Source: Candidatus Latescibacterota bacterium
Lineage (GTDB): Bacteria > Latescibacterota > UBA2968
DNA length: 64,000 bases
Assembly (NCBI GenBank): GCA_965207885.1
Contig: OZ242311.1
Coordinates: forward strand, 4,512,001-4,576,000
Reading direction: 5' to 3'
This document shows positions 49,061 to 64,000 of the stretch, one piece after another. The first letter of the stretch is position 1; the number at the start of each line of letters is the position of its first letter. The position numbers were made by a program, and so were the translations under genes. The notes below the pieces were generated by a model that saw nothing but the letters and a program-made list of their open reading frames with translations, did no database searches and was not told where the DNA came from.

Positions 49061-50134
49061 TCAAACCAGATATGCGCCATCCCGGATGATTTGACGTGTC
49101 CTCCCAGTTGCTGAAATCAACATGAGTGACGCCACTTGTATCGGGCTGTCTTTGGCATAGACGATGTCTTCGTGAACAATATGTGCGGGGGATTTGAATT
49201 GTTCTGGCCCAATTGTGCCGCCGAGATGTTCGCTGCGTCCATAAGCCCAGTGAAAGCCCGCTTTTTCATCTTCTAAGACATTGCCCCAAACAACGGCTTT
49301 GGGGTTACATCCCAGGGCGAGTTCGGCGATGTTGCCGCGTATTGGATCTTCTTCGAAATAGGCTTTGAAGCTCGCGGCCTGTGTTGTTTTTCCCGCGACA
49401 TCTACGATCCGATTGTTTTCGACCCGAAATACGATGACGTCGCCATTATCACTGACGGGTATTTCGCCTTCCGTGCGACTCGGGTCGCCCTTTCTTTCTC
49501 CTTCATAGGGGACCTGGAAACTCTCTCCACTCGGCAAGTTGATGATGGGAAATGCCGAGTTTGCCTTTTCTCGGGGCAGTTGTCCGTCGTCTTTGTGGGC
49601 TTCTCCGTAGCGCAGGTCAACGGTCCATTTGTGGCCGGTTGAAAAAATAACCCGTGCGTATTCTGCTTCGGAGAGGGCGTCCATTAATATCTGGCAGCGG
49701 CGCGCCACTTCGGTATAATCCGCAGAGAGCGCGGTTTCTTCCATGCGGCGCGCAACGCCGGGCAATGATGCGGCGCGAAAATCATTGTGTGAACGCGCCC
49801 ACATAGATAGGGGTGCGGTGGCGGAGAATTGCGTGAGTGCATTTACTATTGTGGCTTGCGTCAGGCCGTCGCGCAAGGGGATGGGTTCGCCTTTGTCGAG
49901 GGGCAAATTGCCATTGTGCGCACCGGTCGCGGGAAAGGTGATGAGCGGCAGGACGTCGAAGCCAATCTGTTCGCCGAACGATACCCAGGCTGCACGCCAT
50001 TCGGCGGCCATTTCTCTGCGCTCGCGCCAGGTCTCGCTATCGCGCAGTTCACCGTGCGGGACGTCGGCAATGACGGCTACTGTTTCGTCGGGTTCGGGAT
50101 GAAATACATCTGTGAATAATTTGTGTAAGTCCAT
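49061..50134 (-). CDS. M29-like (thermophilic) aminopeptidase
   Basis: NLPSGE, NIAELALG, LEDEKAGFHWAYG, HED. Confidence 0.75.
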   Translation of the reverse strand: MDLHKLFTDVFHPEPDETVAVIADVPHGELRDSETWRERREMAAEWRAAWVSFGEQIGFDVLPLITFPATGAHNGNLPLDKGEPIPLRDGLTQATIVNALTQFSATAPLSMWARSHNDFRAASLPGVARRMEETALSADYTEVARRCQILMDALSEAEYARVIFSTGHKWTVDLRYGEAHKDDGQLPREKANSAFPIINLPSGESFQVPYEGERKGDPSRTEGEIPVSDNGDVIVFRVENNRIVDVAGKTTQAASFKAYFEEDPIRGNIAELALGCNPKAVVWGNVLEDEKAGFHWAYGRSEHLGGTIGPEQFKSPAHIVHEDIVYAKDSPIQVASLMLISATGRTRQIIRDGAYLV

Positions 50135-50135
50135 T

Positions 50136-50948
50136 TTACAGGTTGTCCAATACAGCGCGCAGTTGTCGTACGCCTTTTAGCATGAGTTCTGGGGATCCCC
50201 AGTGTTCGATGCTCACATTGCCCGTATAACCGTCTGATAGGACCATTTTGAGCAGGTCTTCGTATTTTATATCGCTGTCGCGAATGGGGTCCAGTTCTTT
50301 GTCGGGGTTGGGTTTGACGTGGAGATGGGTGATTCGTCCTTTGATCTGTTCGTATCCATCTGGGATAGCCTGTTCGCCACATCCGATGCCGTTGTTCACA
50401 TCCCAGCAGAAGCTGAATCCCGATGTGTCTCCCAGGGCGTCGGCAACCATTCTCGCTTCCGCACAGGTGCCAGCAATGGTCGCGCCTTCGTTTTCCAGGG
50501 ATAGGGTGACGCCTTCGCGTTTGGCTGTTTTGGCTATGGGGCCGAGAAATGGCACGATGACGTCGAGATAGTTCTCAACACCGGGTCGATTTGCCCGGTC
50601 TCCTTTTCGTCGATTGGGGTTCCAGAGGGAAAATCCGCGGATGACGGTTGTATCAAATGCTTTTGCGAGTTCGATCATGCGGTCAAATATGCGTTGGTGT
50701 TCGGCTTTTTCTTGGTCGCTGTCGTGGGCGCATTTGCCCACGGGCGAGCCGACGGACATAACGGTTACATTGTATTTTGCCAGTACGTCCTGGACGCGCT
50801 GCAGTTCGTCGTTGTCGATTTCCTGGACGCGTTTGCCCCAGATGCCGCCGCGCAGTTCAATTCCCGTTGCACCCGCTTCTACGCCCAGGCGCACAGATTT
50901 ATCAAAGTCGGCTTTGTCGATTTCATCTGCAAAATAACACAGTTCCAT
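50136..50948 (-). CDS. Sugar phosphate isomerase/epimerase (AP endonuclease 2 TIM barrel)
   Basis: FADEI, LENE, WD, HLHVK, SIEH. Confidence 0.85.
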   Translation of the reverse strand: MELCYFADEIDKADFDKSVRLGVEAGATGIELRGGIWGKRVQEIDNDELQRVQDVLAKYNVTVMSVGSPVGKCAHDSDQEKAEHQRIFDRMIELAKAFDTTVIRGFSLWNPNRRKGDRANRPGVENYLDVIVPFLGPIAKTAKREGVTLSLENEGATIAGTCAEARMVADALGDTSGFSFCWDVNNGIGCGEQAIPDGYEQIKGRITHLHVKPNPDKELDPIRDSDIKYEDLLKMVLSDGYTGNVSIEHWGSPELMLKGVRQLRAVLDNL

Positions 50949-50971
50949 CCCTTCCTCCTGTAAATGGTTAT

Positions 50972-51027
50972 ACGAATCAACGAATCAACGAATCAACGAA
51001 TCAACGAATCAACGAATCAACGAATCA
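50972..51027. repeat. Tandem repeat (ACGAATCA)x7
   Basis: Seven perfect octamers. Confidence 0.95.
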
Positions 51028-51054
51028 ATGAAACAGGTAATGTACATGAAAGCC

Positions 51055-51086
51055 GTCATTGCGGCATGGTTTTAGCCGCAATCCAG
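51055..51086 (+). repeat. GTCAT-type REP-like palindrome
   Basis: GTCATTGCGGCATGGTTTTAGCCGCAATCCAG. Confidence 0.7.
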
Positions 51087-51109
51087 AGGTTTTGGGTGGC
51101 GGGGTAGGG

Positions 51110-51138
51110 TTCGTCTATTCGTCTATTCGTCTATTCGC
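51110..51138. repeat. Tandem repeat (TTCGTCTA)x3.5
   Basis: Reverse complement unit is ACGAATAG, a variant of the upstream octamer. Confidence 0.85.
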
Positions 51139-51273
51139 GCTTTATACAAGGTCGTATATTTCTTTTTTCTCGTGCTCTTCCCACAATAAATATAATATCT
51201 CCCCTCACAGTCAAAGAAAAACGCGACCCACGCGAGTTTATTTTTCGTTTTTAATTTTCGATTTTTAATTATC

Positions 51274-51603
51274 ATGCGTTTTATGAATGAACAGACGCGA
51301 AAGAAAATTCTGCAATCCACACCGCACCCAAAGGGAATTCGCAAGGTGGATAGAAAACGCCTGATAGCGCAGTTGGCCCGCGCTGAGCCACCGCTCGATT
51401 ACGACCGGTATATTCGCTCTAAATCATGGCAGATTAAGAGGCAGAAGTTTCTCGCCCATTACAATTGCCAGTGCGTTTTGTGCGGGAGCAAAGAGCATTT
51501 GCACGTCCACCATCTGCACTACAAGACGCTGGGGAATGAGGGCGTGGAAGATGTTATCGTTTGCTGCAGGCGTTGTCATTTTATAGAGCATTTTAAGAAG
51601 TGA
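51274..51603 (+). CDS. Small HNH endonuclease
   Basis: YIRSKSW, CVLCG, HVHHLHY, CRRCH. Confidence 0.85.
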   Translation: MRFMNEQTRKKILQSTPHPKGIRKVDRKRLIAQLARAEPPLDYDRYIRSKSWQIKRQKFLAHYNCQCVLCGSKEHLHVHHLHYKTLGNEGVEDVIVCCRRCHFIEHFKK

Positions 51604-51619
51604 TCCAGTGGTTTTGTCT

Positions 51620-51683
51620 GTCATCGCGGCATGCTTAAAGCCGCGATCCAGTATTTTGTAGGGGCGGGTCCCGTGCCCGCCCG
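51620..51683 (+). repeat. GTCAT-type REP-like palindrome followed by GTAG-type palindrome
   Basis: GTCATCGCGGCATGCTTAAAGCCGCGATCCAG and GTAGGGGCGGGTCCCGTGCCCGCCC. Confidence 0.7.
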
Positions 51684-51700
51684 CACTTCCGGAGATTTTT

Positions 51701-52981
51701 ATGCCGAATATTATCATTATTACCACGCACGATACGGGGCGGCATTTTGGGTGTTATGGTGTCGATACGGTACATACGCCCGCGATTGATGCGATTGCCG
51801 ATGATGGGTTCAAGTTTACCAATTATTTTACGACGAGTCCGGTGTGTAGCCCCAGCCGGGGAGCTATGCTTACGGGACGCTATCCGCAGAGCAATGGGTT
51901 GATTGGATTGACGCATTCGCCGTGGGATTGGTGTTTTAATGAGGGGGAGCGACATCTTTCGCATATTTTGCGGGATGCGGGTTATTATACGGCTCTTTTT
52001 GGGTTGCAACACGAGGCGTCTAATACCGAGGATTTGGGTTTTGAAGCGACTTTTGCACAGCGCGATGATACTGGCCGCCGCGCAAACGCGCTTGTGGTTG
52101 CCGAGGCTCTGGGGAATTTTCTCAGGGCTAACGCGGGTTCTAAGACGCCGTTTTATGCGCAAGTCGGGTTTTTTGAGACGCATCGTCCGCACGATTTTGG
52201 CGATGTGGGACCCGATGATAGCAAGGGTATTGATGTGCCGTCTTATCTGGTTGATGACGAGACGTCGCGACGAGAACTCGCTCTACAACAGGGTGCGATC
52301 CGCCGCGTGGATGAGGCGGTTCAGATTATTGCCGATGCACTGAGAGAAAGTGGTTTGGAAGACGATACGCTGCTGGTGTTTACGGTTGATCACGGTATTG
52401 AATTTCCGAGGGCGAAGTGGTTTTGTTATGACGCGGGTATTGGCGTTGCATTGCTTATGCGCTGGCCCGGTGGGGGTGTTCGGGGGGGACAGTGCTGTGA
52501 CCATCTGCTCAGTAATGTCGATTTTTTGCCCACGCTTATGGATCTCATACAGCATCCCGTTCCGGATAATGTGGAGGGTTTGAGTTTTGCCAGTGTGTTC
52601 AAAGATCCCGATGCGGATCCCACGCGAGATGCGGCTTTTTCGATTTTTCAGGGTAGCGATAGTCGCAGTGTTCGCACCGATCGCTACAAGTTTATTCGCA
52701 ATTTCAGCCCGCGGCGCCTGATAGATGTGCCCGTGGATATGACCGATCCCCCCAGGCCGCGCATCAAACAACCGGTGGCGCAACTCTACGATCTGGAAAA
52801 TGACCCTAACGAATTTGAGGATGTAGCCGATAAACCCGAATACAGGGATGTGTATAATGCGTTGAGCCAGCGTCTGTGGCAATGGATGGAAGATGTGAAT
52901 GATCCTTCGCTCCAGAGTCCGATTCCCACGCCGTATTATTGGGAGGCGATGGCGGAATATAACACGAGAAAGGAAGGGTAA
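51701..52981 (+). CDS. Cys-type sulfatase (sulfamidase-like)
   Basis: HDTGR, CSPSR, ETHRP, DHG, PRAK. Confidence 0.9.
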   Translation: MPNIIIITTHDTGRHFGCYGVDTVHTPAIDAIADDGFKFTNYFTTSPVCSPSRGAMLTGRYPQSNGLIGLTHSPWDWCFNEGERHLSHILRDAGYYTALFGLQHEASNTEDLGFEATFAQRDDTGRRANALVVAEALGNFLRANAGSKTPFYAQVGFFETHRPHDFGDVGPDDSKGIDVPSYLVDDETSRRELALQQGAIRRVDEAVQIIADALRESGLEDDTLLVFTVDHGIEFPRAKWFCYDAGIGVALLMRWPGGGVRGGQCCDHLLSNVDFLPTLMDLIQHPVPDNVEGLSFASVFKDPDADPTRDAAFSIFQGSDSRSVRTDRYKFIRNFSPRRLIDVPVDMTDPPRPRIKQPVAQLYDLENDPNEFEDVADKPEYRDVYNALSQRLWQWMEDVNDPSLQSPIPTPYYWEAMAEYNTRKEG

Positions 52982-54186
52982 TGTCGAAAGGAAAAATTGT
53001 AAATCTCGCGCTCGTCGGCTGTGGCGGTATTGCCGGTGGGCATCTTCGGCGGTATGGAGAGCTTATCGACAGTGGTGAAGACCGTTTTCGCATTGTGGCT
53101 ACGGTTGATAGCGATATCAGTCGCGCGCAGGCATTTGCCAATCAGATTAATGGCAAGACCGGACGGGAGGTCAATAGTTATCCTTCGGTTGAGGATCTGC
53201 TCAATTCAGAGTCCAATCTCGATGGGGCCGATATATGCAGTCCCCACGGTCTGCATCATGTGCTCGCCTGCGAGTTGCTCGAAGGCGGTGTGAATATTTT
53301 GTGTGAGAAGCCCATTGGTATAACTGTTAAAGCTACGCAAAGAATTATCGATACAGCCAGGCGTTGCAATAAGATCGCCGCGAATGCCGAACAGTGTCGC
53401 CGCAGTGTTGGGCAGCGCACGATTCACTGGGCGTTTAATGGTGGTCCGCTCGGTGAACCCAGATTGTGGTACGCCATCAGGTCGGGGTGGCAGGATCCCG
53501 CGAATTATCCCGATTGGCACTGGCGCGTGGATCGCAAACTCGGCGGTTGCGGAATGGTTATGGATAGCGGTGCGCACTGGGTAGATACCATGCGCTACTG
53601 GTTTGGGGAAGTGGAGAGTGTTTATGCGCGTGTGGAGCAAATGGAACAACGTCCACATAAGAAAGGCGAGGATCTGGTCGATGATAGTCGCGAGGATTTT
53701 TGGACCAGTATTTTCAATTTTGAAAGTGGCGTGATCGGCACGTGGTCGTGGACGGTTAGCGCGCCGGGGAAGGGTTTTACACAACTCAATCTCACGGGGA
53801 GCAAGGGCACGATTGTCGAGAGCGATATTTTTCATCCGGCGGCTTCTCAGGCGCGCGGCGAGTGCCATTTTGTTGATGGCACGGCTTATGGCGTGTCCCA
53901 GCTTCAGGATATGTTTCTGGGTTCACTGAGTCAGGGCGAAAAGGATCGCCTCTTTCCCTATGGGCTAACCGATGGCATGGCGATTGAGTTGTGGGATTTT
54001 ATCGATGCTCTGAGTATTGGACGCGGTGTGGAAATCGATGCCGAAGAGGGGCTTAAGAGCAAGGCCGTGAGTGAGGCTATTTACGAGTCTGGGAAAAGCG
54101 GACAGGTCGTCAAGGTGGGCGATGTGATATCCGGCGAGGTTTGTGCGTATCAGCAGGATATTGATCAGATGTGGGGGTTGGCGTAA
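52981..54186 (+). CDS. Gfo/Idh/MocA family oxidoreductase
   Basis: VGCGGIA, CEKP, DSGAHWVD. Confidence 0.9.
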   Translation: MSKGKIVNLALVGCGGIAGGHLRRYGELIDSGEDRFRIVATVDSDISRAQAFANQINGKTGREVNSYPSVEDLLNSESNLDGADICSPHGLHHVLACELLEGGVNILCEKPIGITVKATQRIIDTARRCNKIAANAEQCRRSVGQRTIHWAFNGGPLGEPRLWYAIRSGWQDPANYPDWHWRVDRKLGGCGMVMDSGAHWVDTMRYWFGEVESVYARVEQMEQRPHKKGEDLVDDSREDFWTSIFNFESGVIGTWSWTVSAPGKGFTQLNLTGSKGTIVESDIFHPAASQARGECHFVDGTAYGVSQLQDMFLGSLSQGEKDRLFPYGLTDGMAIELWDFIDALSIGRGVEIDAEEGLKSKAVSEAIYESGKSGQVVKVGDVISGEVCAYQQDIDQMWGLA

Positions 54187-54207
54187 GGGTTGGATGGGTG
54201 ACTGCTG

Positions 54208-54250
54208 AAAAAACAGGCCGCGATCCCTTGAGACCGTGGCCTGTTTTGTT
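54208..54250. terminator. Bidirectional intrinsic terminator
   Basis: AAAACAGGCCGCG...CGTGGCCTGTTTT between convergent genes. Confidence 0.7.
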
Positions 54251-54292
54251 TCCTCTCATTTGGCTGTACCACTCAACACTAACTCAGGTTTG

Positions 54293-54333
54293 TTGCCTTT
54301 CATCGGTGTTTATCTGTGTTTATCGGTGGTTGC
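54293..54333 (-). repeat. Dispersed 41-bp decamer repeat, copy 2
   Basis: Matches 17155-17195. Confidence 0.8.
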
Positions 54334-54336
54334 TTT

Positions 54337-54729
54337 TCACGCCTTTCCCGGACGACCTATTTCGATGAGGTTGCCATCCGGGTCGTGTACAAAAACATAG
54401 CGCGTGCCGTCGTGTGGGCGCACGCCGGGACCGGAGGCAACGCGCACGCGTTCGCGGTCGAGCGAGGTGATGACGCGATCGAAGTCGGCGACTTCAAAGG
54501 CGATGTGGCGTCGCGAGGGACGGGGGTATTCTTCTGCGAGGATCAGGTGGATTTCGATGTCGCCACAGCGATACCAGGCACCAGCAAAGTCGTAATCTGG
54601 CCGGGGAATGGGTTGCAGCCCCAGGAGCTTTTCGTAAAATGCCGATGCGCGCTCGAGGTTACCTGTAACCAATGTGATATGGCTGACGCGCGTGATGCCC
54701 AGGCCAGCCGATTCCATGCGATTGGCCAC
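54337..54729 (-). CDS. VOC/glyoxalase family protein
   Basis: SHITL, FYEKLLGL, HIAFEV, DPDGNLIE. Confidence 0.9.
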   Translation of the reverse strand: MANRMESAGLGITRVSHITLVTGNLERASAFYEKLLGLQPIPRPDYDFAGAWYRCGDIEIHLILAEEYPRPSRRHIAFEVADFDRVITSLDRERVRVASGPGVRPHDGTRYVFVHDPDGNLIEIGRPGKA

Positions 54730-54733
54730 CGGA

Positions 54734-55615
54734 TCAATTCTCCATCAATAAGGTTCTCATTTTACGCATGCGCGAGGGATGTTTGAGTGCTGCCAGGGCT
54801 TTGTCGCGTATTTGGCGCACGCGCTCTTTGGTCAGGTTGAGGATGTTGCCAATTTGCTCCAGTGTCATTGTTTCACCGCTGTTAATGCCAAAATAGAGGC
54901 GTAACACGCGGGCGTCGCGCGGAGCCAATGTGTTGAGTGCGGTGCGTATTTCCTCAGCCATAGAGCTTTCGAGCATGGCCTCTTCAGGGGTTTCCTGATC
55001 GTTGTCTGACAACATTTCCAGCAAGCTGGTGTCAGGGCCGTCTTCAAGGGGCATGTCGTATGAGATATGCCACCGCGAAGCGCTGAGGAGGTCTTGCACT
55101 TGTTTGGGTTGAAGTTCGGCCTGTGCAGCGATTTCTTCAACACGCGGTTCGCGCCCCAGCGATTGTTTGAGTTCTGAGGATATGCGTTCCAATTTGCTCA
55201 GGTGTTTGATTTTGTTGACGGGCAGTCGCACCATGCGGGCTTTTTCTGCCAATGCCGATAAGATGCCCTGCCGAATCCACCAGACTGCATACGTGGTGAA
55301 TTTGACGCCAACGGTTTCGTCATAGCGGGTGGCTGCGCGAACAAGACCCATGTTGCCTTCGGCGATGAGGTCTTCCAGGAGCAGGCCGCGTCCCTGATAT
55401 TCTTTGGCTATGGTAATGACGAATCGCAAATTGGATTCGATCATTTTATTGAGACTTTTGCGGTCTCCTTTGCGAATGCGCTTGGCCAGGTCAATTTCTT
55501 CTTGTGGCGTGAGCAATTCGCTATAGGCGATGTCTTTGAAATAGAGTTCCAGTGCGGAACTACTGCCTCCATTTGTTCCGTTTGAGGTCCTGTAACTCAT
55601 AAGTGCGGCAGACAT
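54734..55615 (-). CDS. RpoD/RpoS-like group 1-2 sigma factor lacking region 1.1
   Basis: LELYFKDI, SNLRFV, KFTTYAVWWIRQ, TLEQIG...TKERVRQI. Confidence 0.93.
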   Translation of the reverse strand: MSAALMSYRTSNGTNGGSSSALELYFKDIAYSELLTPQEEIDLAKRIRKGDRKSLNKMIESNLRFVITIAKEYQGRGLLLEDLIAEGNMGLVRAATRYDETVGVKFTTYAVWWIRQGILSALAEKARMVRLPVNKIKHLSKLERISSELKQSLGREPRVEEIAAQAELQPKQVQDLLSASRWHISYDMPLEDGPDTSLLEMLSDNDQETPEEAMLESSMAEEIRTALNTLAPRDARVLRLYFGINSGETMTLEQIGNILNLTKERVRQIRDKALAALKHPSRMRKMRTLLMEN

Positions 55616-55922
55616 GTATTTCCCCCGTGACTGAGATATCGACTCTCTTGATCGAGTGTCTTGTGTTTCAACTCGTCAAAGGTTCACAATAAGTACTGTG
55701 ACACCTTCCGACTCCTGTATGGGAGAGAATCGGTTGTTGCCAGAATATACGGCGCATCGATCATGGGGATACCAATGGCCCGATTATATGACAACTTAGA
55801 TAAGGGGAGTGTCGCTTTGGGGAGTTGATCTGGATGGGGAAACGACCACGGGCCGCAGGGGAGCGGTGTGCTCGACCAAATCACAGTGTGTGGGCAAGTA
55901 TTGAGGGGAAAGATAATACTTG
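55616..55922 (-). promoter_or_regulatory. Long structured 5' leader (or sRNA) with six UCCCC motifs
   Basis: Six GGGGA on plus strand in 55765-55909; hairpins with UCCCC loops on minus strand. Confidence 0.55.
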
Positions 55923-55929
55923 AGCAGAC

Positions 55930-55958
55930 AAGATAGCGGATTCAATTCTGTAATGCAA
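55930..55958 (-). promoter_or_regulatory. Sigma-70 promoter for the sigma-factor leader
   Basis: TTGCAT-17-TATCTT; predicted start coincides with first hairpin. Confidence 0.55.
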
Positions 55959-56101
55959 CTATTTTTCTATGCCATTCTCCTGATATTTTGCAACGCAAAG
56001 CCATATTTTTAGATGAAATACTTATTGGCATATTGAGAGAAAATAATAAATAGAATTTCATTTGTCAATAAATAACTCTTGTTTAACGAGTTACAGGCTT
56101 G

Positions 56102-56620
56102 CTACTGGTCCTCGGCAGTAGAGGTGCCGTTGAGTTGTCGCTGGGCGAGGTCGCGGTCGAGCAAAAACAAACCATTGCCCTCTATGCCGACCAGCTTGAT
56201 CGTGTCGATTAATTCCCTGACAATGGCTTCTTCTTCGACCTGTTCGGCAATAAACCACTGGAGAAAGGTATGGGTGGCGTGGTCGCGTTCGGACAGGGCG
56301 AGATCGGCGATGTTGTAGATGCTTTGAGAGACTCTTTGCTCCTGGGCAAGGGAATCTTCAAATACTTCTAATGGGTTGTCCCAGCATTGTTTTGGGGTAT
56401 CAATGGCGCTAAAACGTATATCGGCCTCCCGGTCGTCGAGAAAATCGTATATCTTCATTCCATGGGTGAGTTCTTCCTGGGCTTGAACGCGCATCCAATG
56501 GGCAAAGCCATTGAGATTTTGCGTGAGAAAATACGCGGACATCGCCAGATAACTATAAGCCGAGTAATATTCCATATTGAGTTGCTCATTGAGCGCGGCG
56601 TTTATGTTTGTGTTAATCAT
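56102..56620 (-). CDS. ftnA: Non-haem ferritin
   Basis: EQLNME..S..Y, QAQEELTH, WFIAEQVEEE; AGGAGG SD. Confidence 0.93.
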   Translation of the reverse strand: MINTNINAALNEQLNMEYYSAYSYLAMSAYFLTQNLNGFAHWMRVQAQEELTHGMKIYDFLDDREADIRFSAIDTPKQCWDNPLEVFEDSLAQEQRVSQSIYNIADLALSERDHATHTFLQWFIAEQVEEEAIVRELIDTIKLVGIEGNGLFLLDRDLAQRQLNGTSTAEDQ

Positions 56621-56675
56621 GGTGTCCTCCTGTTGCGAGAGGGAGAAAAAAGGAGTATCCAAAAGGGGGGGGATA

Positions 56676-56703
56676 AGTATAAGAAAAATATGGATTTTGT
56701 CAA
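56676..56703 (-). promoter_or_regulatory. Sigma-70 promoter of ferritin 1
   Basis: TTGACA-16-TATACT. Confidence 0.6.
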
Positions 56704-56883
56704 CCTATTAAAATAACTGATTGATTATACTTTGGTTATAGAAGAAATTCCCAATGGTGTAGTGAATTTTTCTGTTGATTCTTTTTGAGAAATTGCGTAA
56801 AACTTTAGTAACTTCTAAACACGGAGCATTTGATTACCCCAGTGTGGCCCATAAGTCACCCAACAGGAGGTTTGTTTTTTGTT

Positions 56884-57366
56884 ATGATTCCCAAGAAGGT
56901 CCTCATGGCTTTGAACGAGCAACTCAATTTTGAGTTCCATTCGGCATTTCACTATCTCGCCATGGAGACGTATTTTCACGAGGTAAATCTGCACGGGTTT
57001 GCCCATTATATGCGCGAGCAATACAAAGAAGAACGGCAGCACGCGCTCAAGATTGTGGATTATATCAATGCGCGAAACTGTCGGGTCCTGCTCAAGCAGA
57101 TCGCCGAACCGCCTTCTGAGTGGGCATCACCTCTGGAGGTTTTTGAAGATGCGCATCAGCAGGAGCAGAAATCCAGTGGGATGATCAATGATCTGGTCGA
57201 TCTCTCACTGAATGAGCGCGACCATGCAACGGAGATTTTCTTGAAGTGGTTTATCGAGAAACAGGTAGAAGAGGAGGCGCAAATCAGCAGTATTGTGCAA
57301 AAGTTGAAGCTGGTGGGCGATGACGCTTATGGTCTGTTTTTACTGGATCGAGATATGGGGGGATAG
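56884..57366 (+). CDS. ftnA: Non-haem ferritin, second paralogue
   Basis: EQLNFE..S..Y, QYKEERQH, WFIEKQVEEE. Confidence 0.92.
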   Translation: MIPKKVLMALNEQLNFEFHSAFHYLAMETYFHEVNLHGFAHYMREQYKEERQHALKIVDYINARNCRVLLKQIAEPPSEWASPLEVFEDAHQQEQKSSGMINDLVDLSLNERDHATEIFLKWFIEKQVEEEAQISSIVQKLKLVGDDAYGLFLLDRDMGG

Positions 57367-57404
57367 ATACTTGTGTCCACAGGCAGACTGAATACAGAAG
57401 CACT

Positions 57405-57580
57405 AAAGAGAAGCACCCTCAGCATATCGGAGGGTGCTTTTTTTCAGGTATTATAAATAGCGTTAGGATCCGTCCAGTATTTACAGATGGAAGGCCAGTG
57501 ACAGACCCCATTTGTAACTGTCACTGGCCCCGGGCCGGGCATTGAGTGTAAGAGGAGGCTTGCTTTTGCCCGGCTTATAC
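57405..57580 (-). ncRNA. Candidate trans-acting sRNA in the hmuV 3' region
   Basis: Two perfect stems (8 bp and 12 bp); first loop carries an anti-SD complementary to the ferritin 2 RBS. Confidence 0.45.
57411..57444. terminator. Intrinsic terminator after ferritin 2 (possibly bidirectional)
   Basis: AAGCACCCTC/GAGGGTGCTT stem plus T-run. Confidence 0.85.
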
Positions 57581-57612
57581 AATGGCAAAATATTCGATAT
57601 AATTTCCTTTTT

Positions 57613-58395
57613 TTAGATGGGTACAATGAGTGGAAATTTTTTAACGGGATGGATAATTTGCTGTACGCGAATATCAAATGCATCTGAAACTACGTCTGGC
57701 GTCAATACCTGATTGGGAGCACCACTGGCCACTTGTTCGCCATTTTTCAACACATGTACCTCGTCGGCATATTGGGAAGCTAAGTTGAGGTCGTGCAACA
57801 CGCAGAGTACACCTGTTTCATTGCTGGCCCATTTTCGTGCCAGTTGCAATACCTGATGTTGATGCGATAAATCCAGGCTTGTCGTTGGTTCGTCCAGCAG
57901 CAGATATCGCCCTGCGGTGAGATGTTTGTCCCAAATTTGGGCCAGTACGCGTGCAAATTGCACCCGCTGTTGCTCTCCTCCCGATAGTGTTGGATAAACG
58001 CGCTGTTCCAGGTGCGCCACGCCTACCCATTTCAAAGCCTCCTGTGCAATTTCATAATCCCGCGCGCTTTCTATGCCTTTTACGTGTGGGAAGCGCCCCA
58101 TGAGCACCACGTCTAAAACGCGGAAGGGGAAAGTCAAAAAAGATTGCTGCGGCAAGATCGCGCGCTGTTTCGCACATTCAACAGGTGTTAAATCGGCAAT
58201 CGGACACCCATCTATCCTGACCGTTCCCTCAGAGGGGACCCACTCACCACACATCACTTTTACCAATGTGGATTTGCCCGCGCCATTTGGTCCGAGCACG
58301 GCTACAACTTTGCCCGGTGCGATCTGGATCGAAACGCGTTTGAGCAGATGGTGCCCATCTATTAGAACAGAAACCTGGCGCGCTTCAAACATCAA
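57613..58395 (-). CDS. hmuV: Haem ABC transporter ATP-binding protein
   Basis: GPNGAGKST, LSGGEQQRVQFARVLAQ, LDEPT, HDLNLA. Confidence 0.93.
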   Translation of the reverse strand: MMFEARQVSVLIDGHHLLKRVSIQIAPGKVVAVLGPNGAGKSTLVKVMCGEWVPSEGTVRIDGCPIADLTPVECAKQRAILPQQSFLTFPFRVLDVVLMGRFPHVKGIESARDYEIAQEALKWVGVAHLEQRVYPTLSGGEQQRVQFARVLAQIWDKHLTAGRYLLLDEPTTSLDLSHQHQVLQLARKWASNETGVLCVLHDLNLASQYADEVHVLKNGEQVASGAPNQVLTPDVVSDAFDIRVQQIIHPVKKFPLIVPI

Positions 58396-59492
58396 AACAC
58401 CTGTCGGTTGCGATTTTGTAGTAATAAAAAGAGGAAAAAGGGTACGCCGATGACTGCTGTTACAATGCCTATGGGCAATTCGGCAGGTGCGACAAGCGTG
58501 CGTGCTACCAGATCAGCGGCCATCAATAGAGAAGCTCCCAGGAGTGCTGCCCCCGGGATTAAGTAGCGATGATCTGGCCCAATTGACAACCGCAGAAGGT
58601 GCGGCACCACCAGGCCGACAAATCCGATTATGCCCACCACAGAAACCGATGCACCCACAGCCAGTGCAGCCAGTGTCACCACTTCGCGCTTCATGCGTTC
58701 GATAGATACGCCCAGATGTCTGGCTTCGGCTTCGCCCAATAAAAAGATGTTGAGCGCGCGTCCATAGAGACCGAGCAAACAGACCGATATAATAATAAAA
58801 GGCGTTACTACGCTCACCGAGGTCCAGGTCGCGCCACCCATGTTGCCCATGCTCCAGAATGTGATATTGCGCAACTGGGCATCTGTTGCCACAAATGTCA
58901 ATAAACCCGTTAATGCACCGCTCAACGCATTGATGGCAATGCCGGCCAACAGCATTGTTGCCACAGCTACGCGTCCACTTGTCGCGGACAATTGATAGAC
59001 CAATAGTGTTGCAGCGACTCCACCGATAAATGCGGCAATGGGCAGTGTATAGTCGCCCAAAATCTCCGATAGGCCCTTCAGTACAGTCGCGCCCAGGACA
59101 ATTACCGATACCGCAGCTAATGCGGCGCCACTTGACACGCCGATCAAACCGGGGTCGGCCAATGGGTTGCGGAAAAGCCCCTGCATGGCAGCGCCTGATA
59201 CAGCCAATCCGGCTCCGACGAGCACATTCAACAGGACTCTCGGCAGCCGAATGGCGACGACAACGGCTTCCTGGTGCGATTGAAATGTTTGCTCAACAGA
59301 AAACCCCATTCGTTTTGCAAAGATCGACAAAACCTGTGCGGGTGTAACGGATACTGCGCCAATGCCCACCGAGGCCACTACCAGTACGCATAGCAATACG
59401 CACAGTGCCAGCAATATCAGAGAGGTTCGTTTTATTTGTAAGCGAGAAATGCGAATACCATCCCGTTGTAAAACTGTTGGTGCCGCGCTCAT
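58392..59492 (-). CDS. hmuU: Haem ABC transporter permease (FecCD family)
   Basis: IRLPR, QGLFRNPLADPG, GEAEARHLG, IGFVGLVVPH. Confidence 0.93.
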   Translation of the reverse strand: MSAAPTVLQRDGIRISRLQIKRTSLILLALCVLLCVLVVASVGIGAVSVTPAQVLSIFAKRMGFSVEQTFQSHQEAVVVAIRLPRVLLNVLVGAGLAVSGAAMQGLFRNPLADPGLIGVSSGAALAAVSVIVLGATVLKGLSEILGDYTLPIAAFIGGVAATLLVYQLSATSGRVAVATMLLAGIAINALSGALTGLLTFVATDAQLRNITFWSMGNMGGATWTSVSVVTPFIIISVCLLGLYGRALNIFLLGEAEARHLGVSIERMKREVVTLAALAVGASVSVVGIIGFVGLVVPHLLRLSIGPDHRYLIPGAALLGASLLMAADLVARTLVAPAELPIGIVTAVIGVPFFLFLLLQNRNRQVF

Positions 59493-60346
59493 GACCCATC
59501 TTTCAATTGTGGGTGTAATAGATGAGACAGGTCGCGCACTGCATCGGCCAATCGGGGACCGAATCCCAACAGATAAATGCCATTCATCGTCACAATGCGC
59601 CGTTCCTGTCCGGCCGGTGTCAATGCTACGCCGGGTACTTTGAGCAGATCATCTATATCACCCAGGCTTTCCAGTCCGCTTTCGAGCATCAAAATGACAT
59701 CGGGTGCCGCAGCGACTACTGCCTCAGATGTTAAAGGTTTATATCCGTCGTATTCGGTCACGGCATTCACGCCACCTGACAGATTGATCATGGTATGGGC
59801 AGATGTATTTTTGCCCGATACTAACATTGTGCCCTGTCCGCGTGCATAGATAAATAATACGCGGGGACGCGGAGATACTTTCGCGAGCAATTGGCGCGTT
59901 TGTTGCATATCGTCAGATAATTTTTGTGCGAGAGCCTCCCCTTTTTCCGTCTTTTCTATCGCGCTGGCAATCACACGGATCTTTGTTAAAGCCACATCTA
60001 CGCTATGTGAGTCGGGCAGTACCACGACCCGTACGTCGGCCTGGCGAATTTGTTCCAGGGCCGCGGGTGGTCCAGCATCTGCACTGACCAATACCAGGGT
60101 CGGATTTAGAGACAGCACGCCTTCGGCTGAGAGCCGACGCTGGTATCCCACTTTGGGCAGGGATGTCGCGGCTTCGGGATATTGGCTGGATGTATCTACA
60201 CCTACCAGGAGTGAATCGGCGGCGAGTGCGTACACAATCTCTGTGACGTCGCCACCTACCGATACGACGCGCTGTACGTGTTCATCGGTATGGCCTTGTG
60301 TGAATAATCCACAACACAGGATTAGAAGAATGATTACGCGACGCAT
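59489..60346 (-). CDS. hmuT: Haem ABC transporter substrate-binding protein
   Basis: VTEIVYAL, DTSSQYP, VGYQRRLSAEG (Tyr haem ligand), LGFGPR. Confidence 0.9.
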   Translation of the reverse strand: MRRVIILLILCCGLFTQGHTDEHVQRVVSVGGDVTEIVYALAADSLLVGVDTSSQYPEAATSLPKVGYQRRLSAEGVLSLNPTLVLVSADAGPPAALEQIRQADVRVVVLPDSHSVDVALTKIRVIASAIEKTEKGEALAQKLSDDMQQTRQLLAKVSPRPRVLFIYARGQGTMLVSGKNTSAHTMINLSGGVNAVTEYDGYKPLTSEAVVAAAPDVILMLESGLESLGDIDDLLKVPGVALTPAGQERRIVTMNGIYLLGFGPRLADAVRDLSHLLHPQLKDGS

Positions 60347-60669
60347 TAGACCGTCTCCTTGCGCTCAGAGTCCAGAAAAACCTCGTGAATCTCCAATTGG
60401 TTTGAACCTGTAAACGCCTCTTTGGGCAACGATCCCGACCTGGCATGGCCTTTTTGAAATGCCTCGGAATTGACCCAGTTTTTGAAATGCTCGTGCGATT
60501 CCCAAAAGGTGAGCACGATATAGGGGTGATCCTTTTTTTTGGGGCGTAATACTTTGTTGGAGATAAAACCCGGCATGCCATCCACCAGGTGTGCTCGATT
60601 GCGAAAACGCTCTTCAAATTGCTCGGCGTATTCTGGATTTACAAAAATGCGATTGGCAACGGCTACCAT
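60346..60669 (-). CDS. IsdG/ABM-family haem-degrading monooxygenase
   Basis: Conserved Asn (VANRI), Trp (NWVNS) and His (FQKGH). Confidence 0.85.
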   Translation of the reverse strand: MVAVANRIFVNPEYAEQFEERFRNRAHLVDGMPGFISNKVLRPKKKDHPYIVLTFWESHEHFKNWVNSEAFQKGHARSGSLPKEAFTGSNQLEIHEVFLDSERKETV

Positions 60670-60695
60670 AACAGACCTCCTGTCTCGTGTTTCAA

Positions 60696-61982
60696 TCACC
60701 GAAGCGAGCGCGACCCGTCGGGTTGAAACGTGTAAGTGAAATTGTAATAACGCGATTGTGCACCGGTAGATGGTACTGCGTCACCGCCTTTGTAATAGCT
60801 CGTAAACTTGAGCTTGGCATAACGGCCATCTGCTGTGCGGATAACCAGTACGACCCCCGGGTTCATCAGGATAGCATGGGGTGGAAAACCCTCAGGCCCG
60901 GTATATGTGTACCGGGCTCTGCCGATAGCGGGAAGACCGGGCTGATCCTGTACATATCCCGATTCGGGCGCTGTTGAAAGGGTGTCGTAATCTGTTGCTG
61001 TGAAAATGATTGCACCGCCTTGACCGGGACCATTGATGCCGCTGTTGGTTAAGACGGTCGTGGATTTAAACGCGAGATCCCATTTTGTGGAATTGGAATC
61101 TGCTGGCGATACAACGGCGCTGTCTCGAAGGCTATAATACGTGAAGGCGTCCTTCCTGTCTGGATCGGCGGGAATATCGCGCGCGTTCACTTCTGTTAGT
61201 GTTGTGATTTCGGTGGATGGAGGCGGTTCGGCAAATAAACGCGATCCGTCGGGTTGGAATGTGTAGGTGAAATTGTAAAAACGCGATTGTGCGCCAGCAG
61301 ATGGTGTTGCTTCACCGCCTTTGTAATAGCTCGTAAATTTGAGCTTGGCATAGCGTCCATCTGCGGTGCGGATGACCAGTACGACCCCAGAGTTCATCAG
61401 GATGGCATGGCTTGGCGGGCCGGTATATGTGTACCAGGCTCTGCCAATAGCGGGTTGACCGTCCTGATCCTGTACATATCCCGATTCGGGTGCTGTTGAA
61501 AGGGTATCGTAATCAGTTGCTGTGAGTATGATTGCACCGCCTTCACCTGGACCGCTGCTGCCGCTGTTGGTTAAGACGGTCGTCCCCTTAAACGCAATAT
61601 CCCATTTTGTGGAGTTGGAATCTGCTGGCGATACAATAGCACTGTCTCGAAGGCTGTAATACGTGAAGACGTCCTGCCGATTCGGGTCGGCGGGTATATC
61701 TTGGACGACCACTTCTGTTAGCGCTGTAATCGGCTCAGGGGCTGGCGCGGCTTCACTGCCGAATACCTGGACGAAGAGTAAGAAGTCTGCAAAATCAACC
61801 GTTCCACTGTTGTCGAGGTCGTATAAGGCCTCTGTTGTGCCAAAAGCCTGGGCAAACTGGAGAAAGTCGGGGAAATCGACTGTGCCACTGCCGTCAAAAT
61901 CGGCATTGGACGATGTTTTTGCCAGGGCTGGCGCTGTTGCTAAAACAAAAATACAAAGGGCCAGCAGGTTTAAAGTTTTCAC
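60696..61982 (-). CDS. Secreted protein with EF-hand/dockerin-like module and two tandem HmuY-like domains
   Basis: ADFDGSGTVDFPDFL x2; duplicated WDIAF...NSG..G.G.GG...IRTADGRYAKL...YY. Confidence 0.82.
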   Translation of the reverse strand: MKTLNLLALCIFVLATAPALAKTSSNADFDGSGTVDFPDFLQFAQAFGTTEALYDLDNSGTVDFADFLLFVQVFGSEAAPAPEPITALTEVVVQDIPADPNRQDVFTYYSLRDSAIVSPADSNSTKWDIAFKGTTVLTNSGSSGPGEGGAIILTATDYDTLSTAPESGYVQDQDGQPAIGRAWYTYTGPPSHAILMNSGVVLVIRTADGRYAKLKFTSYYKGGEATPSAGAQSRFYNFTYTFQPDGSRLFAEPPPSTEITTLTEVNARDIPADPDRKDAFTYYSLRDSAVVSPADSNSTKWDLAFKSTTVLTNSGINGPGQGGAIIFTATDYDTLSTAPESGYVQDQPGLPAIGRARYTYTGPEGFPPHAILMNPGVVLVIRTADGRYAKLKFTSYYKGGDAVPSTGAQSRYYNFTYTFQPDGSRSLR

Positions 61983-62012
61983 GACGGTATCCTCCCTGAA
62001 AATTTGAAGTGA

Positions 62013-64000
62013 TTAGAAGCTTTTTGTCAATCCCGCATAGAGTGTTCGCCCGGGCAGTGAAGGGGTGTAGTCCAGTCGCTTTTCATCGAATATGTTGTCG
62101 ATGCCCAATTGAACTGTCGCGACTTTGCGGATGTGTTGGGATATGGAGATGTGCCAGAGGTCATAACCCGGCGCATATTCTTCTGGTGCGTCTAAGATGG
62201 TATTTAAGTTGCGGTCGCGATAACCGTATCGCCCCCGATAAATACCGCGCAAACTTCCACTAAAACCGAGTTTCTCATTGTGAAAAAAGAATCGCATCGT
62301 GGCCATGTGTTTTGAGCGGTTGTACAAACCGCCGTATTCGGATATTTCAACGTGGCGCAGCTTGTTGGTTTCAGTGTCAATTTTTACAATTTGATCGGCT
62401 TCGATTTTGTCCAGGACTTCTTCGTCTCCGGTTTCCAAATACTGATAGCCCGCGGATAAGGACACGCCTGAGAAGGGGTTTAGTGTGAGGTCGCTTTCTA
62501 TGCCTTTTGTAAAGACGCGATTGAGGTTGAAATAGGTATAGACACTCTGGCCGCTCATTTTGCGCGCGATGGGCGAGGCTTCGATGAGGTCCTGTACGTT
62601 ATTGCGGAAGAAATTGATTTTGGCGGATATACTGCGTAGGGGGGCGATTTCAATGCCTCCGTTATATGAAACCGCACTTTCGGCGCGAATCTGTTCCATG
62701 GATTCAACATCTTGCAAGATGGCGGCAATACGGCCTTCGCGTTGTAGTAATGCCAGGCCTTCGCGCATGTATGTTGATCCCAGAACAGAATAACCCACGG
62801 AGGGATTTGTAAAATCCAGATACAATTGCTGAAAGGTAGGTGCTTTGAAACCACTGCCGATAGAGGCGCGGAGACGCAGAGAAGGTATCGGTTTGATGAG
62901 GAGTGCAGCTTTGGGGCTTAAACGGGTTGCGTAATCGCTGTGTGCATCAATGCGTCCGCTGAGGACGATGTTGAGATAGGTGGTGGGCAACCATTCTTCT
63001 TGCAAAAAAGCAAAGGTGTTTTGCGAGGTTTGTCGTCCACCTGTGATGCGGTCTGCTTTGACCGATTCCCAAATGCCTCCTGCGCCCACTGTGATCAGAT
63101 TTGTTTTTCCTATGAGCTTTTGGGCCTGTACTTCGGCTTTGTGATAGTTTTGGGCAAAAGTTGAGGCAGAGTAGGTCTCGCCGTTGTTGCGATAGGTGAG
63201 CTCGCTTTTTGTGTGGTACCTGGTGGTGTAAAATTTTCCCGTTATCTGGAAATCGGGTGTCCATTGGAAGACGATTTTGGGATTGATATTCCAATCCGTC
63301 AGTCGCGCATCGCTGTGGATGGCCTCTATCGCACCGTTTGAGTAGATCTCATCCAGGCTGTACTGGTCTTCTACAAATACCCGCGCTACAAGCGATAGCG
63401 TGGTTCGTTGATTGGGGTGGTAAACGATTTTGGGATTTAACGTGTAGGTGACATATTCTGGCGTGGTTGGAGAAATCGTTTCGGGGGTGTGGTCATATCC
63501 GTCACTTTGGCTTCTGTCAATAAAGAATGAGGTTCCAATCTCGCGTTGGTGGGTTTCTAATTCGCCAGTGAAATTCAAAGAGCCGAAGCTGCCATAGCGC
63601 GGGCGCACAGATATGGAGAATGGTTTTTCAGGCATTCGCGTGATGAGGTTAATCACACCGGCGAGTGCCTCACTGCCATAGAGCGACGATGTAGGTCCTT
63701 TGACGATTTCTACTTGCTCGAGATTGTTCACCAAAAAGCGGTCCAGGTCGAGCGTTCCCGCTGTGCGTCCGATGATGGGTTCGCCATCCAGGAGAATAAG
63801 CGTATAATCGGGGTCAAAGCCCTGCATCTGAACGCCCATGCCGTGATCGGATATGACGGCCAGCCCGGTTTGTTCGGCCAGTAAAGCTCCCAGATTTATT
63901 ACGCCAGACGCATCGATTTCTCGTTTGGTAATGACCTGGGTTTGGATGGGCGCATTTTCGACTTTGCGAGACGATTTGGTGCCTGTGACAACAATCGGTG
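62013..64000 (-). CDS. TonB-dependent haem receptor (HmuR-like), N-terminus off window
   Basis: Frame open to window edge (PIVVTGTK), VEIVKGPTSSLYGSEALAGVINLIT plug, C-terminal F. Confidence 0.92.
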   Translation of the reverse strand, partial: PIVVTGTKSSRKVENAPIQTQVITKREIDASGVINLGALLAEQTGLAVISDHGMGVQMQGFDPDYTLILLDGEPIIGRTAGTLDLDRFLVNNLEQVEIVKGPTSSLYGSEALAGVINLITRMPEKPFSISVRPRYGSFGSLNFTGELETHQREIGTSFFIDRSQSDGYDHTPETISPTTPEYVTYTLNPKIVYHPNQRTTLSLVARVFVEDQYSLDEIYSNGAIEAIHSDARLTDWNINPKIVFQWTPDFQITGKFYTTRYHTKSELTYRNNGETYSASTFAQNYHKAEVQAQKLIGKTNLITVGAGGIWESVKADRITGGRQTSQNTFAFLQEEWLPTTYLNIVLSGRIDAHSDYATRLSPKAALLIKPIPSLRLRASIGSGFKAPTFQQLYLDFTNPSVGYSVLGSTYMREGLALLQREGRIAAILQDVESMEQIRAESAVSYNGGIEIAPLRSISAKINFFRNNVQDLIEASPIARKMSGQSVYTYFNLNRVFTKGIESDLTLNPFSGVSLSAGYQYLETGDEEVLDKIEADQIVKIDTETNKLRHVEISEYGGLYNRSKHMATMRFFFHNEKLGFSGSLRGIYRGRYGYRDRNLNTILDAPEEYAPGYDLWHISISQHIRKVATVQLGIDNIFDEKRLDYTPSLPGRTLYAGLTKSF

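Follow-up and report, generated by a model that had tools for sequence, protein, structure and literature searches.

The window analysed here, a stretch of 64,000 nucleotides (contig OZ242311.1, positions 4,512,001 to 4,576,000), comes from a Candidatus Latescibacterota bacterium of the genus designated g1, whose genome is a single contig of 6.23 Mb, 97% complete. On its minus strand lies a gene for a sigma-70 family factor, separated by 486 nt from a ferritin gene on the same strand, and the part of this gap between the start codon and a promoter-like site (55616-55958) specifies a long 5′ leader in which the word UCCCC occurs six times upstream of an atypical ribosome-binding site, GGGGGA. 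The feature is real, conserved and belongs to the RNA, and it probably controls the amount of sigma factor made; the mechanisms proposed for it are graded one by one below. To the reading that we favour, a cis-acting, multi-copy anti-Shine-Dalgarno leader, we give a tentative probability of about 0.4. What is new is a word repeated within an mRNA leader whose own ribosome-binding site is altered to match it, and which recurs in a few conserved RNAs; no description of such a leader was found in the literature on Latescibacteria small RNAs or on anti-Shine-Dalgarno or C-rich sigma leaders, among the matches listed. Gene regulation is almost unstudied in Latescibacterota, a phylum represented here by metagenome-assembled genomes alone. 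Should this reading hold, this lineage sets the level of an alternative sigma factor at translation, by means of a repeated C-rich word and a matched ribosome-binding site, and the long leader becomes testable in a surrogate host. The features of the gene and its leader are as follows.

54734..55615, minus: open reading frame of the sigma-70 family gene, 293 aa, with Pfam domains Sigma70_r1_2, r2, r3 and r4 (regions 1.2, 2, 3 and 4)
55595..55625, minus: region of translation start, from the ribosome-binding site through the AUG to codons 2-7, for which the consensus fold predicts pairing with 55836-55864
55616..55923, minus: 5′ leader, about 308 nt, its 5′ end placed from the promoter
55621..55626, minus: ribosome-binding site GGGGGA, separated by 5 nt from the ATG and unchanged in all 20 genus members
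55708..55733, minus: hairpin CCGAUUC...GAGUCGG, with one U-G pair
55756..55777, minus: motif 6 hairpin, 8 predicted pairs, 2 with compensatory changes (consensus columns 165-172 with 180-187)
55765..55769, minus: UCCCC motif 6, in a hairpin loop; UCCCCA invariant in 20 of 20
55804..55808, minus: UCCCC motif 5, locally unpaired; CCCC invariant, U replaced by G in one species
55819..55823, minus: UCCCC motif 4, locally unpaired; CCCC invariant in 20 of 20
55836..55840, minus: UCCCC motif 3, the most variable of the six, predicted in this genus to pair with the ribosome-binding site
55853..55866, minus: hairpin 2, CCGC[UCCCCU]GCGG, invariant in the genus alignment; its 3′ arm may alternatively pair with codons 3-4
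55858..55862, minus: UCCCC motif 2, within the 6-nt hairpin 2 loop; identical in all 20 sequences
55895..55922, minus: hairpin 1, CAAGUAUU[12 nt]AAUACUUG, 8 pairs, at the predicted 5′ end of the transcript
55905..55909, minus: UCCCC motif 1, within the 12-nt hairpin 1 loop; reduced to UCCUC in 4 of 20 genus members
55930..55958, minus: promoter-like TTGCAT-17-TATCTT, below the scan threshold

A repeated word on the strand of the sigma gene

The six words were noticed in a preliminary description of this region as GGGGA on the plus strand, at 55765, 55804, 55819, 55836, 55858 and 55905, where they are indeed found, reading UCCCC on the strand of the sigma gene; about 0.13 copies are expected per 145 nt per strand. 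A seventh GGGGA, on the minus strand at 55621-55625, is part of the ribosome-binding site. Because the window as a whole contains the word at expectation (118 copies on both strands versus 122.6 in shuffles), the six copies in 145 nt form a local cluster. The genome carries the word at 0.00094 per nt per strand. Four or more copies fall within 160 nt in 40 clusters, and just two of these reach six copies; 36 of the 40, including the other six-copy cluster in a 676-codon open frame, lie inside open frames of at least 216 codons. The sigma leader is the densest non-coding UCCCC cluster in the genome and ranks first in sense-strand count among 2,566 upstream intergenic regions, as delimited by crude gene calls (5,064 genes). 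Upstream regions overall are not enriched in UCCCC (0.78 sense versus 0.85 antisense copies per kb).

Leader DNA, which occurs once in the window's genome, was detected by BLAST in each of the 20 other genus genomes, with 72-97% identity, and in none of 40 genomes of other genera. The 20-sequence alignment shows no variation in hairpin 2, in the CCCC of motifs 4, 5 and 6, or in the ribosome-binding site and the bases flanking it (CACGGGGGAAA). Orthologue leaders from other genera of families f1 and f2 cannot be aligned to that of the window, and the other-genus loci with a full 450 nt upstream and GGGGA at the start contain 1-8 UCCCC each; judged from sequence comparison, the word persists where the leader sequence does not. 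No 5-mer is more over-represented than TCCCC in 14 representative leaders, which span several genera and two families: it occurs 52 times versus 15.8 expected under a first-order model (z 9.2) and is present in all 14. Loss of the motifs in relatives, which had been named as fatal to the idea of a functional leader, is thus not what was observed, the leader being present in 20/20 genus genomes and the word in 14/14 representative leaders. The word can be written Y-UCCCC-W, the base that follows CCCC being A in 23, U in 27, G in 2 and C in none of the 52 cases, and its copies are irregularly spaced, 7 to 159 nt apart. It tends to be accessible: 39/52 leader motifs are locally unpaired versus 160/378 other intergenic UCCCC, and 15/52 versus 35/378 lie in good hairpin loops, ratios that overstate independence because the leaders are related to one another. 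In the representative leader of the genus (L023), all six motifs are locally unpaired and four are in hairpin loops.

The feature is assigned to the strand of the sigma gene because the motif is sense in all orthologues and because G-U pairs occur in stems that vary between species, which would be A-C mismatches on the plus strand. The 14 representative leaders contain 52 sense UCCCC versus 0 GGGGA, and the minus-strand fold has a z score of -3.49 (0/100 shuffles as good) compared with -0.42 on the plus strand (32/100), so that the action on the minus strand that the preliminary description had favoured is borne out by both the count and the G-U pairs. The alternative of a signal of the plus strand or of the DNA itself, in the form of a CsrA-binding GGA sponge, a G-quadruplex or repeated protein sites on DNA, is extremely improbable. 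Each of the six GGGGA does contain GGA, and two could lie in hairpin loops; the irregular spacing, the sense orientation in orthologues and the A-C mismatches nevertheless speak against it. CsrA (PF02599) was not found in the single-contig genome by a search that matched three control genomes, and together with a plus strand that folds no better than its shuffles this leads us to reject a CsrA sponge of the CsrB/RsmZ type, while a G-quadruplex is set aside because some orthologue leaders have only 1-3 copies, fewer than the four it would take.

Coding is unlikely as well because the leaders differ by frame-breaking indels of 1, 2 and 5 nt and because their open frames differ from species to species; no conserved open frame was found in the leader, the 66-codon frame at 55684-55884 being lost elsewhere, and a coding leader or an upstream open reading frame is rejected. 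Rfam 15 gave no match at E<=1 on either strand of window positions 50000-64000, in keeping with the earlier suggestion of an undescribed RNA, and a scan detected no terminator-like site on the minus strand of the leader.

Three stems quoted in the preliminary description are present, at 55895-55922, 55853-55866 and 55708-55733. All 8 pairs of hairpin 1 are invariant in 20/20 sequences, and therefore there is no covariation for or against it; it could be a DNA operator instead of an RNA hairpin. In related genera (L040-L042, L069), the arms AUUUGAU and AUCAAAU form a perfect palindrome around 7 nt whose centre is C-rich, just upstream of the TATCTT block (before position 1501), while hairpin 1 of the window's genus stands downstream of it. 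These inverted repeats, like hairpin 1, could be DNA operators rather than RNA hairpins. In the consensus fold hairpin 2 is replaced by pairing of UGCGGC with GCCGCA. The CCGAUUC...GAGUCGG part appears to be dispensable because 2 of the 20 species have lost its 3′ arm along with the ~60 nt that follow: in these genus members (G002 and G013) about 70 nt of proximal leader are missing (~55653-55725), and CCGAUUCU is able to pair with downstream AGAGAGUCG, suggesting two alternative partners in the full-length leader.

The ribosome-binding site and its predicted pairing

The ribosome-binding site of the sigma gene is unusual too. GGGGA is found 9-11 nt before the start in 48/52 orthologue loci, and in two more at corrected starts. 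In the genome GGGGGA occurs in the -20 to -4 window of only 23/5,064 genes, while AGGAG occurs 850 times, so that the site pointed out in the preliminary description proves to be both rare and conserved. The 16S rRNA of this genome has a canonical CCUCC tail, ending in ...GGAUCACCUCCUUUCU; as sequences, GGGGGA matches UCCCC better than it matches this tail. The two closest sigma paralogues have canonical sites and 0-1 UCCCC upstream.

These properties would be accounted for by a leader that folds back on its own gene. One UCCCC copy would pair with the ribosome-binding site and hold translation low until a signal, which we infer along with the pairing and the repression, opened the structure. 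In the genus the partner would be motif 3, aided by flanking helices over the AUG and codons 3-4, and the remaining copies would serve as spare or competing partners, giving alternative conformations. Such masking in cis is plausible, and it would be the simplest account of a conserved site that departs from the usual AGGAGG.

The predicted structures agree with this account in several respects. Both the single-sequence fold and the genus consensus fold (columns 95-99 with 332-336) join GGGGA to motif 3, where C-to-U changes preserve G-U pairs in 1-4 sequences per pair. In the consensus fold of g1, the start region forms 19 pairs in four short helices, 8 of them with one-sided changes that preserve pairing. 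A separate consensus fold of 13 leaders from genus g7 pairs GGGGGA with the most conserved UCCCCU (12/13), closing a domain with 8 compensatory pairs. Across 12 lineages, the G-run of the site is predicted to be paired with the upstream leader with a probability of 0.87-1.00 in every case.

Transcription of the leader, whose absence the preliminary description had counted as refuting, is indicated by contigs from RNA libraries of three sponge metatranscriptome studies. Each study covers the leader, and two runs of one of them each yield a contig that extends unbroken across leader and coding sequence (54518-56748 in X1, 54546-56096 in X3) at a depth of 25-27, versus 0-3 in the neighbouring bin (0 and 1.25 at 54404-54507); uncovered window parts in runs X5 and X6 were excluded from the evidence. 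The promoter proposed earlier, TTGCAT-17-TATCTT, is found at its place in 20/20 genus members (as TTGCGT in 3) despite its score under the scan threshold, and orthologues from other genera and from family f4 likewise have a TATCTT block upstream.

Several results weigh against masking in cis. The site is sequestered at least as well in 38 of 144 dinucleotide shuffles (12 leaders, 12 shuffles each), and the predicted pairing is therefore largely compositional. RNAduplex energies between leader and start in 19 leaders range from z -2.46 to +1.27 relative to dinucleotide shuffles, a single leader falling below -2. A 17 x 17 cross-lineage matrix shows no preference of leaders for their own start (permutation p 0.70). 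Extended complementarity between leader and start is thus unsupported past the core word, a long private duplex being found only in lineage L041. The long-range helices of g1 contain no compensatory (two-sided) changes in the consensus fold. A single copy would suffice for pairing in cis, leaving six unexplained. A fifth C never follows in the 52 motifs although the site holds 5-6 G; since the fifth G would pair with it, the word resembles a defined recognition word rather than simple complementarity. Orthologues in family f4 give two points for and one against a strict link between site and motif: in two, the site is GAGGU and UCCCC is missing downstream of the conserved TATCTTTTGC block (the TATCTT block), and the third has GGGGGA yet also lacks UCCCC downstream of that block. 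The leader of another gene, smc (see below), contains the word at 8.3 per kb versus 11.6 per kb in sigma leaders, with CCUCC no commoner, in front of a canonical AGGAGG site, and therefore the word there is not tuned to the site. Lastly, the evidence of transcription is moderate because the contigs carry no information on strand or RNA ends and because DNA carry-over is possible.

The cis anti-Shine-Dalgarno action put forward in the preliminary description thus survives in part: the conserved complementarity to an unusual site stands, while the pairing is no better than in dinucleotide shuffles, leaders do not prefer their own start and the fifth C is missing. Likewise, the covariation that it called for is seen as compensatory pairs in local stems and in the inner stems of g7, but not in the long-range helices of g1, nor as lineage-specific co-variation.

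The composition of the leader, in which no intrinsic terminator was detected, invites a further explanation, in which the C-rich, G-poor stretch is a Rho loading (rut) site that causes early termination in the leader unless it is masked. The genome has a gene for Rho, most of the motifs are unpaired, and genus leaders have C 0.27-0.36 and G 0.13-0.17 between -330 and -100, forming a C-rich, G-poor, unstructured stretch such as a Rho attenuator has. We consider this quite unlikely. One exact 5-mer is enriched beyond dinucleotide composition and has a fixed flank, which is more specific than Rho is known to need; family f2 leaders keep the motif although they are not G-poor (C about 0.30, G 0.20-0.27); three motifs are in hairpin loops; a small RNA that has a terminator-like stem and U-run of its own also contains the word (see below); and RNA contigs pass through the leader into the gene.

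The leader of the Escherichia coli rpoS mRNA is a useful comparison for both masking and Rho. It is a cis-inhibitory 5′ untranslated region opened by the small RNAs DsrA, RprA and ArcZ, and Rho also acts on it, a Rho site having been proposed there. Like it, the sigma leader would be a long 5′ leader of a stress-type sigma-70 family gene with a site predicted to be masked by an upstream complement. The intergenic DNA in front of the sigma gene measures 486 nt, RNA contigs cross it, and a promoter-like site conserved in the genus stands about 308 nt before the gene; the sigma factor scores under the RpoS cut-off. By contrast, the two are unrelated in sequence and by Rfam, the masking word here is a defined 6-mer repeated six times, the site is atypical, and Hfq was not found in this genome, while rpoS is opened by named small RNAs. 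A Rho site is possible in both leaders (for the rpoS mechanism, see PMC12360218).

The same word in two other conserved RNAs

Three other non-coding UCCCC clusters of the genome were inspected, and two of them are conserved. Both lie outside the window, on the minus strand.

G000:C1:4922743-4923000, minus: leader upstream of smc
G000:C1:325569-325781 (L126:1621-1833:-), minus: small RNA candidate of about 215 nt

In front of the smc leader stands a TTGAC(G)-17-TATTAT promoter that is strongly conserved, and all 21 genus genomes show four UCCCC-like words in the leader, the window's genome having 4 UCCCC. In family f2 it contains 2-4 UCCCC in 10 g7 genomes, 3 in 2 g9 genomes, 3 in 2 g10 genomes and 2 in g11; counts are 1-2 in g3, g5 and g8 and 0 in g2 and g6. 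A hairpin of the form GCAACGGAUU[AUUCCCC]AAUCUGUUGC in g7 appears in g10 as CCAAGGGUU[UCCCCA]ACCUGUUGG, the loop UCCCC being kept while the stem co-varies. A scan for three close UCCCC in three g7 genomes gave 70 matches, coding and non-coding unsorted, and recovered the smc leader in 3/3.

The small RNA candidate has a conserved TTGACA-17-TATATT promoter, a terminal stem followed by a U-run, and five UCCCC copies, and it has no Rfam match. Within the genus, 65 pairs are predicted, 7 of them with compensatory changes. Its hairpin 1 has a 12-nt loop whose core CUCCCCA is invariant in 20 aligned sequences, on a stem that is rewritten in other genera, and the loop of the 3′ domain holds two further copies. 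A G-rich internal segment, GUGGGGAG, is complementary both to CUCCCCA(C)-type motifs and to CUCCCCAC, the loop sequence found in most members. A covariance model with strict filters found one copy in 30/53 genomes of the order (20/20 in g1 plus the window's genome, 1/1 in g5, 3/3 in g6, 2/2 in g9, 2/2 in g10 and 1/1 in g11); in the other 23 (g2, g3, g4, g7 with 0/15, and g8) it was not found, although a diverged form may have been missed by these filters.

A non-coding run at G000:C1:2000367-2000452, also outside the window, consists of imperfect tandem units of about 21 nt, each with (C/U)CCCCUGUAUCCG.

From the smc leader and the small RNA it is evident that UCCCC has a function as an RNA word in this lineage. 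Because the word is common to them and the sigma leader, a shared trans-acting reader becomes a serious rival to masking in cis, one that we rate as possible, if doubtful. The UCCCC(A/U) words would then be binding sites of an RNA-binding protein or a G-rich RNA; in a logic like that of Csr/Rsm, the multi-site small RNA would titrate the reader, and its binding would set the translation or stability of the sigma mRNA, possibly by determining if a UCCCC copy can mask the site. This would suit a sharply defined motif, with Y at -1 and A/U but never C at +5, that is kept single-stranded or in hairpin loops and recurs in three unrelated conserved RNAs, one of them with AGGAGG as its site, in a genome whose upstream regions in general are unenriched. 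It leaves the rare GGGGGA of the sigma gene unexplained, and it is at odds with the smc leaders of g2 and g6, which lack UCCCC, and with the 23/53 genomes in which the strict filters found no small RNA, among them all 15 of g7, where the sigma and smc leaders keep the motif. No candidate reader emerged among CsrA, Hfq, KhpA/B-type KH and RRM_1 proteins of the genome: a KH-type or RRM-type reader was tried and rejected, the KhpA/B and RRM_1 domains not being found, though other RNA-binding folds were not searched for. The C-rich RNA-binding factor that the preliminary description had offered as an alternative has thus gained weight from the conserved motif in the smc leader and the small RNA, while none of the candidate reader proteins was found. 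The word resembles the target of the eukaryotic KH domains of hnRNP K and poly(C)-binding proteins; UCCCCA also resembles the complement of the tRNA-Pro(GGG) anticodon loop, a possible connection that nothing supports.

The likeness to Csr/Rsm lies in one short word repeated in the loops and single strands of target leaders, together with a multi-site small RNA; the difference is that the word is UCCCC here and GGA there, that CsrA was not found, and that the motif is complementary to the ribosome-binding site and does not overlap it. The two readings could be joined, although we regard the whole as fairly unlikely: one order of Latescibacterota would have a UCCCC(A/U) network, a C-motif counterpart of Csr/Rsm, in which the small RNA, the sigma leader and the smc leader are read by one factor, on whose binding it would depend if a UCCCC copy in the sigma mRNA can mask GGGGGA. 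The wider pattern, in which a sigma leader, the mRNA of smc (chromosome condensation) and a new structured small RNA share a word, would matter more than the sigma leader by itself, giving a bounded set of RNAs in which to seek, beyond the model phyla, a global RNA-binding factor or a class of RNA-RNA regulation that would be new.

Small RNAs with C-rich loops suggest yet another role for the leader, which, whole or processed, might act in trans like RsaE/RoxS, LhrC or the cuckoo RNAs and mask G-rich sites of other mRNAs. Unpaired UCCC motifs of RsaE and RNAIII bind ribosome-binding sites (PMC2790875), and the Firmicutes RNAs RsaE/RoxS, RNAIII and LhrC carry several unpaired, often loop-borne UCCC(C) words complementary to G-rich sites and work without Hfq; 23 genes of this genome have a GGGGGA site, and Hfq was not found in it, as in those Hfq-independent Gram-positive cases. 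The cuckoo/CcsR RNAs of Alphaproteobacteria show CCUCCUCCC in the loop of each of 2-4 adjacent hairpins of a separate small RNA (PMC4615179); the likeness is that of hairpin arrays with varying stems and a constant, C-rich, anti-Shine-Dalgarno-like loop word. Action of the leader in trans is nonetheless very unlikely: no terminator or separate transcript is evident in it, it is single-copy in the genome, and a dedicated small RNA with the same motif is already present. RsaE/RoxS, RNAIII and LhrC are separate, trans-acting small RNAs whose Rfam models the leader does not match, whereas the leader is part of an mRNA and matches its own site; like RsaE/RoxS it has unpaired UCCC complementary to a site, but it does not appear to be an independent small transcript with a terminator. 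Unlike the cuckoo/CcsR RNAs, it belongs to another phylum and carries UCCCC(A/U), never followed by C, with only about half of the copies in hairpin loops and no adjacent hairpin modules. The small RNA at G000:C1:325569-325781 is the closer analogue of the C-rich small RNA class. The sigma leader belongs to none of the systems compared, the nearest by function being the rpoS leader and the C-rich small RNAs.

The sigma gene and its neighbours

The sigma factor itself is RpoS/RpoD-like by sequence and falls under every equivalog cut-off, its best NCBIfam scores being 272.7 bits for RpoD (cut-off 572) and 261.5 bits for RpoS (cut-off 378.7). At E<=1e-95, orthologues were found in 30/30 genomes of family f1, 21/22 of f2 and 3/3 of f4, and in 0/112 genomes from 11 other families of the phylum; the gene is that of an alternative sigma factor confined to one lineage of Latescibacterota. 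Upstream of its leader are the following features.

56040..56068, minus: second promoter-like site, TTGACA-17-TATTTT, with 10/12 matches, just after the ferritin gene
56102-56662, minus, and 56830-57366, plus: divergent pair of ferritin genes, about 48% identical to each other

The second promoter-like site lies in an AT-rich stretch (56040-56101, minus) directly after the ferritin stop codon. RNA-library contigs traverse 56040-56068, and because contigs run through 56040-56101, the sigma gene may also be read from there or from the ferritin gene.

The preliminary description had placed the leader beside iron-storage genes. A link to iron is rejected because ferritin adjacency is limited to part of the genus, a ferritin gene being upstream of the sigma gene in only 16 of the 20 genus loci that have it; the iron-storage context of the leader is incidental. 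In four other genera (L039, L040, L041 and L060, positions ~1-1180), the gene upstream of the sigma orthologue ends in the tail of a sigma-54 activator, and Pfam Sigma54_activat and HTH_8 were confirmed in that of L041 and L060. This neighbour may hint at an older regulatory context of the sigma gene. Beside the ferritin pair of the window, three minus-strand open reading frames (57613-60346) are, as judged by eye, candidates for the ATPase, permease and binding protein of an ABC importer.

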